Sequence record: PV340546
Source: Escherichia phage PhiR5_2
Reading direction: 5' to 3' (one strand)
Length of the DNA stretch: 61,526 nt
The notes under the pieces are model-generated. The model did no database searches. It was given only the letters and a program-made list of their open reading frames with translations, and had not been told where the DNA came from. Positions 57,120 to 57,794 of this stretch are shown here, piece after piece. Made by a program: the position numbers and the translations under genes. Within the stretch, counting starts at the first letter, position 1, and each line of letters opens with the position of its first letter.

Positions 57120-57269
57120 CAGAAATGGCCCCGTACGGAAGTGCGGGGCTGATTAAGAAATAAACACACATTAACCTGTAATAACCGGAGCTATTAACAT
57201 ATAGTCAGAAAGAGTATTTCATGTGAGACAGAGAGCCGATTTATGTTTAATGAAGAAAAAGTTGCGTAA

Positions 57270-57794
57270 ATGGCAGCGTATTTGCTGAAAAAACATGGCG
57301 GATCTATGCGTTTCATTAAGCTGATGTATCTCTCTGACCGCAAAGCAATGGAGTTGTATGGTTTTCCCATTAGTGGTGATCATTATTTCTCTATGAACAA
57401 AGGACCCGTTTTATCGCAGACATATTCTTTGGTTAAGGATGGAAGTGAAAACGAGTACAGTCCGTGGGAATCATGGATATCTGATGTAGCGGATCATAAG
57501 GTTGAAATGTGGCGTACATTTTCTTCTGTTGATGAGCTGGGGGAGTTATCGCCCGCAGAAATAGAGTCAATGGACATAATTTTTGGTCAATATGGAGGTT
57601 GGGATGCGTTCAGGCTTTGTGATGAAACTCACAGAATTTGCGGTGAGTGGCGCGATCCGCATGGTTCATCAATTCCAATCAGCCTTAAGGATATATTTAT
57701 TGCTCTTGGAAAGTCGCCAGAAGCAGCAACAGTAATGGCGAATAGCATTTATGCGCAAAATAATCTTGATATATTATTAAGTGATCTGAGGTAG
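57270..57794 (+). CDS. Panacea (DUF4065)-like protein
   Basis: 174 aa; recalled DUF4065 pattern (KLMYLSDRKAMELYGFPISGDHYFSMNKGPVLSQTY); a mini-ORF with RBS at 57243 ends with TAA directly before this ATG. Confidence 0.55.
   Translation: MAAYLLKKHGGSMRFIKLMYLSDRKAMELYGFPISGDHYFSMNKGPVLSQTYSLVKDGSENEYSPWESWISDVADHKVEMWRTFSSVDELGELSPAEIESMDIIFGQYGGWDAFRLCDETHRICGEWRDPHGSSIPISLKDIFIALGKSPEAATVMANSIYAQNNLDILLSDLR

Follow-up and report, generated by a model that had tools for sequence, protein, structure and literature searches.

A probable decaying remnant of a PanA-PanT group T6 toxin-antitoxin module in Escherichia phage PhiR5_2

Introduction

SocA-SocB of Caulobacter is a type VI toxin-antitoxin (TA) system in which SocA is a Panacea-domain ClpXP adaptor. 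The closest described relative of the locus reported here is group T6 of the PanA-PanT (PanAT) systems, which was validated in Pseudomonas moraviensis with the pair PanA WP_083354365.1 and PanT WP_083201923.1 (Kurata et al. 2022, PNAS 119:e2102212119, PMC8832971). In that pair, the antitoxin gene comes first, the gap between the two genes is -1, the two proteins form a complex, and the affected process is translation, which is inhibited (PMC8832971). The T6 PanTs have no CDD hit, show HHpred similarity to EndoA/PemK/MazF, and lie at gaps of -1 or -4 from their antitoxin genes (PMC8832971). [quoted passage not shown] 2022, PMC8832971).

Here, we analyze a Panacea-like gene of Escherichia phage PhiR5_2 that is interrupted near its 5' end. 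The initial annotation, made from the DNA letters alone, described eight codons behind a ribosome-binding site, a TAA, and then immediately the ATG of a Panacea-like open reading frame (ORF). It left open whether a nonsense mutation had split the original N-terminus or the short ORF was a coupled leader peptide, and whether the Panacea gene was an orphan or was paired with something unconventional nearby. Comparison with intact relatives in the same genomic position points to the decay of a T6-type antitoxin gene beside the remains of its toxin gene.

Materials and methods

The window is the whole 61,526-nt stretch of phage PhiR5_2 DNA that was analyzed (sequence record PV340546), and positions without a locus name refer to it. 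The query of the homolog search was a repaired 183-aa protein in which the TAA was read as Gln. The locus census comprised 89 loci, 80 of them from one-genome-per-species contigs and nine from earlier look-ups.

Results

Architecture of the interrupted Panacea gene

Direct reading of the sequence confirms the arrangement described in the initial annotation: an ATG at 57243-57245 leads into TTT AAT GAA GAA AAA GTT GCG, giving the mini-ORF MFNEEKVA in the same frame as the ATG at 57270, and the TAA at 57267-57269 directly abuts this second, in-frame ATG of the Panacea ORF. The latter extends from 57270 to 57794, encodes 174 aa, and terminates with a TAG at 57792-57794. The features of the locus are as follows.

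57230..57235, + strand: SD-like AGAGAG, 7 nt 5' of the ancestral start codon (direct sequence reading)
57243..57266, + strand: ancestral PanA codons 1-8 (MFNEEKVA), now a severed 8-codon mini-ORF (from homologs)
57267..57269, + strand: TAA nonsense codon in place of a conserved CAA (Gln9) (from the codon of relatives)
57270..57794, + strand: remaining PanA (Panacea/DUF4065) frame, ancestral Met10 to TAG, 174 aa (PF13274)
57318..57326, + strand: single AAGCTGATG copy, a tandem pair in intact relatives (alignments)
57402..57410, + strand: GGA CCC GTT, the intact GPV signature motif (direct sequence reading)
57800..57817, + strand: toxin gene stub, codons 1-6 MMFSPY, of PanT group T6, MazF-like (blastn against locus L098)
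57823..57862, + strand: remnant of the sequence 3' of the toxin stop, an inverted-repeat region CCGGGGAGGG...CCCCGG (local alignment)

The proposed Panacea-like identity is borne out by a match of Pfam SocA_Panacea (PF13274) to residues 16-127 of the 174-aa ORF (E 2.4e-19, 70.7 bits, cut-off 25.7), and the RefSeq entry for this ORF, WP_032270877.1, is named 'Panacea domain-containing protein'. The ORF thus combines a PF13274 match above the curated threshold with the GPV motif, two marks of PanA membership; a third, an uninterrupted frame from the conserved family start, is lacking, with a TAA at codon 9 and three codons of helix alpha2 gone. The initial annotation was also right that the second ATG has no ribosome-binding site of its own, as the 15 nt that precede it (GAAAAAGTTGCGTAA) contain no GGAG, GAGG, or AGGA and hence no SD core. 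SD-like elements precede the first ATG in intact relatives as well (GAAGGTG in L009, GGGGG in L010). A promoter scan of 56900-58000 found none.

The codon-9 stop replaces a conserved glutamine

In relatives at the same genomic position, codons 8-10 read GCG CAA ATG, whereas the window reads GCG TAA ATG, a C-to-T change. The CAA is carried by L002, L003, L007, and L098-L102, and the TAA by the window, L001, L004, L005, L008, and L103-L112. The search with the repaired protein returned 220 homolog clusters, mostly of 184-186 aa and with 99-100% query coverage, whose N-termini follow MF(N/C/S)E.KVAQMAAYLL; the consensus MF.E.KVAQ was matched in about 88 loci, and a related Pseudomonas locus (L066) begins (V)IFSEQKVAQMAAYFL. 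Position 9 is Gln in essentially all 89 census loci and position 10 is Met in most, with conservation of at least 90% at M1, F2, K6, A8, and Q9. None of the 89 loci has a stop at codon 9, all 89 having a sense codon there. The intact 186-aa PanA of L098-L102 reads MFNEEKVAQMAAYLL...KLMKLMYLSDR, and the MFNEEKVA of the window is identical to its residues 1-8. Consistent with this, residues 1-185 of an intact 185-aa homolog (P0007) align by tblastn straight through the stop (57243-57791, 58.6% identity, E 7e-69).

The alignment with intact homologs suggested in the initial annotation therefore shows the TAA in place of a sense codon, CAA for Gln9, and the CAA/TAA difference between same-position relatives, together with the family-wide conservation of MF.E.KVAQ, supports the first of its two readings, a nonsense mutation that split the original N-terminus. 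Homologs that universally start at the second ATG behind unrelated sequence would have spoken for a different history; instead, the upstream codons are conserved. The TAA abuts an ATG only because Gln9 and Met10 are neighbours in the ancestral protein, and the junction is an inherited by-product rather than a designed feature.

Start-site annotation of intact relatives

Annotations of intact PanA genes often begin at Met10 (177 aa) or later (165 aa) despite an encoded MF.E.KVAQ and an SD-like element, and such mis-started annotations were seen at L009 3974-4534, L010 3916-4476, and L099/L102 4435-4995. Two 177-aa proteins, P0004 of E. coli and P0010 of Salmonella, were considered as independent codon-9 stops and rejected, as their DNA reads intact ATG...CAA ATG; with the upstream codons intact, their Met10 starts are therefore annotation choices and not mutations. 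Similarly, the 165-aa Panacea gene called in L099 and L102 was rejected as a shortened form, since the DNA encodes the full 186 aa. The P. moraviensis PanA shows the same start-site artefact, and the authors of that study added MIFSEQKVAQ to the annotated protein (Kurata et al. 2022, PMC8832971).

Further lesions in the antitoxin gene

Intact relatives carry AAGCTGATG twice in tandem and the window only once, and this loss of 9 nt, which is attributed to repeat slippage, removes three residues (KLM) from the conserved motif KLMKL(L/M)YLSDR. In an AlphaFold model of the intact homolog P0007 (pLDDT 90.5), helix alpha1 spans residues 4-17 and the central helix alpha2, the best-conserved element, spans residues 24-42 (pLDDT 95-98). 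Placed on this predicted structure, the stop would remove residues 1-9, including part of alpha1, and the 9-nt loss would fall inside alpha2. The PanA of the window also has a Gly where relatives have the near-invariant His of a YGH motif.

Compared with the PanA gene of L098 (4462-4995), that of the window shows eight non-synonymous codon differences, one of which is the codon-9 stop, and seven synonymous ones, in addition to a TAG/TAA difference at the terminator and the 9-nt gap. Within the TAA clade, there are four non-synonymous changes and one synonymous change (five differences, far too few for a dN/dS test), a count that fits relaxed constraint in a sample far too small for proof.

The partner gene of intact relatives

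In 83 of the 89 census loci, a partner ORF of 131-135 aa lies immediately 3' of PanA; of the six loci without one, two have less than 40 nt of contig left. In about 81 of the 89 loci, the gap between the two genes measures -6 to +24 nt, and in two more the partner is seen as a late-starting tblastn match only, from which the spacing is unreadable. In intact loci, the partner begins either with a 4-nt overlap of the Panacea stop or a few nucleotides after it. The intact E. coli partner, P0152, has 133 aa, starts MMFTPYRRGT, and lies 5 nt after the 186-aa PanA; it is found in L098-L102, with the same prophage neighbours as in the window.

A profile search with the partner returned at least 208 clusters, all of which are named 'hypothetical protein', and a comparison with Pfam and NCBIfam gave no match at E values up to 10, the PemK/MazF Pfam families included. 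The invariant residues of the partner are two His, a Ser, and a Tyr. Its AlphaFold model (pLDDT 94, pTM 0.86) was compared with the PDB using Foldseek, and the top 39 or so matches were all MazF/PemK (best E 2.8e-3). Because this similarity is moderate (probability up to 1.0, TM-score 0.49-0.61), the likeness is placed at the level of fold only, and at that level the lost partner is predicted to adopt a MazF/PemK fold.

The PanAT T6 pair is also found as cargo in P2-like prophages (L009) and, close to the lysis genes, in a lambdoid prophage of Salmonella (L010). In L009, an E. coli P2-like prophage, the intact 133-aa partner lies directly after PanA (4543-4944, between gpA and the portal gene) and is uncalled in the record; the ORF is present in the protein collection as P0121.

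A deleted toxin gene in the window

The toxin stub of the window (ATGATGTTCAGCCCTTAT, 57800-57817) lies 5 nt after the Panacea stop, with the spacing seen in intact relatives, and is identical in L103-L112; its frame continues by chance to a TAA at 57845-57847. A blastn match between the window and L098 ends at 57817, which is L098 position 5018, inside the partner gene (5001-5402) at codon 6. The match restarts at 57883, at the end of an IbrB-like gene, leaving 65 nt between. Within this interval, 57823-57862 aligns locally with L098 5422-5469 at a score of 30, against a mean of 16.3 (sd 2.1, maximum 26) in 300 shuffles. Taken together, the match up to partner codon 6 and the residual post-stop sequence show a deletion of the toxin gene that starts at codon 7 and extends about 20 nt beyond its stop. 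A tblastn search of the whole window with P0152 and P0121 found nothing below E 0.3, and thus no partner elsewhere in it.

The initial statement that no same-strand partner is adjacent is accordingly right for an intact gene and overlooks the 18-nt partner stub 5 nt after the Panacea stop. The orphan reading holds, in that the toxin gene was deleted and left its first six codons.

Genomic context

Upstream of the Panacea gene, on the + strand, lies a gene for a 2789-aa polyvalent protein with LPD5, LPD1, MuF_C, and LPD38 domains (48750-57119). Downstream, on the - strand, are the IbrB-like gene (57883-58527), a PAPS-reductase-like gene (58512-59738), and then an antirepressor gene. Prophages with 100% identity to the region of the window are present in complete E. 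coli genomes (for example G1/2, G6/7, G8, and NCTC9112). As the giant gene and its 3' flank are also shared with 933W, VT2-Sakai, and other Stx-converting phages, the element is a 933W-type lambdoid prophage.

Loci L098, L100, and L101 preserve the order of a 2791-aa LPD5/LPD38 protein, the 186-aa PanA, the 133-aa P0152, convergent genes for 214- and 408-aa proteins, and AntA. The IbrB-like and PAPS-reductase genes and the giant LPD5/LPD38 protein were weighed as PanA partners and rejected: they stand unchanged next to an intact PanA-PanT pair in L098, and are therefore neighbours and not partners. With the cognate toxin deleted, the earlier suggestion of an unconventional partner nearby is unneeded.

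Several further observations concern this neighbourhood. In intact relatives, a direct repeat of 148 nt flanks the PanA-PanT cassette (L098 4195-4341 and 5542-5689); it consists of the 3' end of the giant gene and a GCCCCG...CGGGGC hairpin, and its two copies are 92.6% identical. The window has a single copy (57003-57149), which is 96.6% identical to the distal copy of L098. Given the flanking repeat, the cassette may have been inserted or exchanged by recombination there. PGAP marks the strain G1/2 ortholog of the giant gene as 'frameshifted'; the copy in the window is one open frame. Two antirepressor-like ORFs on the - strand (59935-60726 and 60814-61098) have near-identical N-termini, MTTQLIPVFEGTISNEP... 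and MTSQLIPVFNGSISNQA..., and the second seems truncated, its RefSeq counterpart being a partial AntA/AntB pseudogene.

Haplotypes and their distribution

All five loci with an intact partner (L098-L102) combine the CAA codon with two repeat copies, and all 14 sequences of the other haplotype (L103-L112, the window, L001, L004, and L005) combine the TAA codon with one repeat copy and the partner stub. Among the sequences inspected, the codon-9 stop, the missing 9 nt, and the loss of the toxin gene are therefore in complete linkage, with no intermediate haplotype seen. The counts in complete E. coli genomes are as follows.

100% match to the 65 nt that surround the stop in the window: 17 of 5,426 complete E. 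coli genomes
TAA allele with IS1 in the 8-codon stub: 1 of 5,426 complete E. coli genomes
CAA version, all short remnants: about 153 of 5,426 complete E. coli genomes
At least 80% of the intact PanA-PanT pair: 0 of 5,426 complete E. coli genomes

The TAA haplotype thus totals 18 of 5,426. Across an assembly collection, the exact 174-aa product occurs in 267 blocks and the intact partner P0152 in 60, which argues that the TAA allele is not being purged. In L008 (2571-3340, E. coli JNEC-KY204), an IS1A lies inside the 8-codon stub with a 9-bp target duplication, GAAAAAGTT; having inserted within the stub of the TAA allele, it is later than the nonsense mutation.

At least two further deletions gave rise to the CAA remnants. 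In O104:H4-type Stx2 phages, the loss extends from about codon 41 of PanA to beyond the stop of the toxin gene, and 933W/O157-type phages retain both ends of both genes. Internal deletions are also found in L002 and L003, and other decayed copies include the IS3-truncated L006, the 148-aa P0003 with an internal deletion, and the truncated P0005 and P0016.

Remnants of both genes can be seen in L003 (3143-3460, E. coli 2015C-4498, a 933W-type Stx phage) and in phage 933W near 57526-57728 (gene L0135). In the O157-type PanA remnant, codons 1-27 are joined out of frame to the 3' end. The corresponding toxin remnant carries an in-frame deletion that joins residues 1-13 to about 88-126, with microhomology AATACTGGC / AATGCTGGC, and reads MMFTPYRRGTIPAIRIADGTIQAHDDIDEEFFQPVLDGF... 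(tblastn E 1e-8). In phage records, the O157-type remnants appear as hypothetical proteins only or are unannotated.

Discussion

We consider it very likely that the locus is the decaying remnant of a PanA-PanT T6 module, with the toxin deleted and the antitoxin disrupted by ordinary gene decay. A 933W-type lambdoid prophage of E. coli carries this locus, the remains of a PanA gene followed by a gene for a MazF-fold PanT, as cargo between the giant polyvalent gene and the convergent IbrB-like and PAPS-reductase genes. The toxin gene was deleted from codon 7 to some 20 nt past its stop, a C-to-T change turned the conserved Gln9 codon CAA into TAA, and a 9-nt slippage deletion between repeats cost the conserved central helix three residues. 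Under the logic of TA addiction, loss of the toxin is expected before, or together with, loss of the antitoxin. Once the toxin was gone, the antitoxin would have had no job, so disabling mutations would probably have been tolerated, and a gene with no toxin to neutralize would have drifted toward a pseudogene. Ribosomes leaving the 8-codon stub could re-initiate at the ATG at 57270 and make some 174-aa protein without residues 1-9, and such weak re-initiation at Met10 is possible. What speaks against decay is that, leaving aside the stop and the 3-codon deletion, all 174 codons read open, that the GPV motif is intact, and that the TAA allele, its product recorded in more blocks than the intact partner, is not being purged.

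The same open frame and motif would suit a working orphan antitoxin, in which re-initiated 174-aa PanA neutralizes the MazF-like PanT of other prophages or of host defence, in an anti-addiction or anti-defence role. Neither its SD-like element nor the promoter of the ancestral gene, whatever that was, has changed in comparison with intact relatives, and the allele is widespread (267 blocks and 18 complete genomes). Adjacency of stop and start, moreover, favours re-initiation in bacterial translational coupling, and is favourable for it here. However, the product would lack conserved residues 1-9 with part of alpha1, as well as three alpha2 residues, and has Gly for the near-invariant His of YGH. 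Sister copies have been struck by IS1, IS3, and internal deletions; within-clade changes run four non-synonymous to one synonymous; and the window holds no partner homolog elsewhere. PanA antitoxins are also reported to be cognate-toxin-specific (Kurata et al. 2022, PMC8832971). We therefore regard a working orphan as unlikely. A selective version of the idea, that the TAA haplotype has been kept since a low level of re-initiated, shortened PanA protects the lysogen or phage from T6-type MazF-like toxins, strikes us as speculative and distinctly improbable. If it were true, the toxins fended off could come from competing prophages or abortive-infection systems, and the nonsense codon would be an expression-lowering mutation, tolerable once the phage's own toxin had gone.

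The other reading raised in the initial annotation, a programmed leader peptide in which the 8-codon ORF controls the Panacea gene through translational coupling or attenuation, draws on an SD-like element before the short ORF and none before the long one, on the stop abutting the start, and on a weak 5-bp hairpin over the TAA-ATG (57261-57277). It does not survive the comparison with homologs and is very improbable: the 'leader' is residues 1-8 of the ancestral protein, in which Met10 follows Gln9; a separate leader ORF occurs neither in any of the 89 loci nor in any CAA-type E. coli copy, of which there are roughly 153; the stop stems from a single C-to-T change and is limited to one toxin-less haplotype; and the hairpin count matches chance expectation (1 found vs 1.0 expected). 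A sequencing or assembly error in a gene that is really intact, for which nothing speaks beyond the general possibility of single-base errors, can be dismissed: 17 independent complete E. coli genomes, produced by different laboratories, share the 65 nt around the stop at 100% identity, as do 10 further assemblies, and two more structural differences are linked to the stop.

Decay of the module remains the preferred reading, and as such the locus has little import for biology at large, the puzzling stop-start junction being plain TA decay. It does bear on annotation: the 174-aa ORF that RefSeq labels 'Panacea domain-containing protein' is better treated as a disrupted gene, and database entries that start at Met10 omit nine conserved residues, which calls for caution when intact PanAs are cloned. 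The series within 933W and Stx phages, from an intact pair through a toxin-less antitoxin to small remnants, is usable for studies of how prophages shed TA cargo.

Among known systems, PanAT T6 is the closest. Pantoea septica LMG 5345 and strain 2016-Iso4, which are census loci L021 and L024, respectively, appear as pT6, A|T, in Dataset S1 of Kurata et al. 2022. The antitoxin is orthologous to these T6-listed PanAs and to that of L066, with its IFSEQKVAQ; the adjacent cognate toxin gene is absent from the window and present in L098-L102 and in 83 of the 89 census loci. On the strength of partner homology through the genomes shared with Dataset S1 and through the Pseudomonas locus L066, the ancestral pair is assigned to PanT group T6. 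The likeness extends to a stand-alone Panacea antitoxin of about 185 aa with the conserved start (M)IFSEQKVAQ-MAAY.L and, in intact relatives, to an antitoxin-first order, gaps of -4 to a few nucleotides, and a toxin of about 133 aa that has no Pfam or CDD hit and a MazF/PemK-like predicted fold. The copy in the window differs in its 6-codon toxin stub, its stop at codon 9, and its 3-codon deletion in the central helix. With the frame interrupted and the adjacent toxin gone, its PanA gene is therefore filed as a disrupted orphan member of the family, not as a working module, and it falls outside no known kind.

The resemblance to MazEF and PemIK lies in the predicted MazF/PemK barrel fold of the lost partner and in the bicistronic, antitoxin-first arrangement. 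In contrast to those systems, the antitoxin is a Panacea domain and not MazE or PemI, and the partner has no sequence match to the PemK/MazF Pfam families, so the likeness is one of fold only. The locus has PF13274 in common with SocA-SocB, and some relatives are called 'SocA family protein' in RefSeq, but the partner here is MazF-like and not SocB. Finally, the locus agrees with orphan and degraded TA genes in the loss of a toxin followed by mutational decay of the useless antitoxin, and in the several independent deletion remnants of sister phages (933W/O157 type and O104:H4 type), with nothing distinctive to set it apart; the survival of the intact ancestor in the same genomic setting makes it a clear and well-resolved example of such decay.
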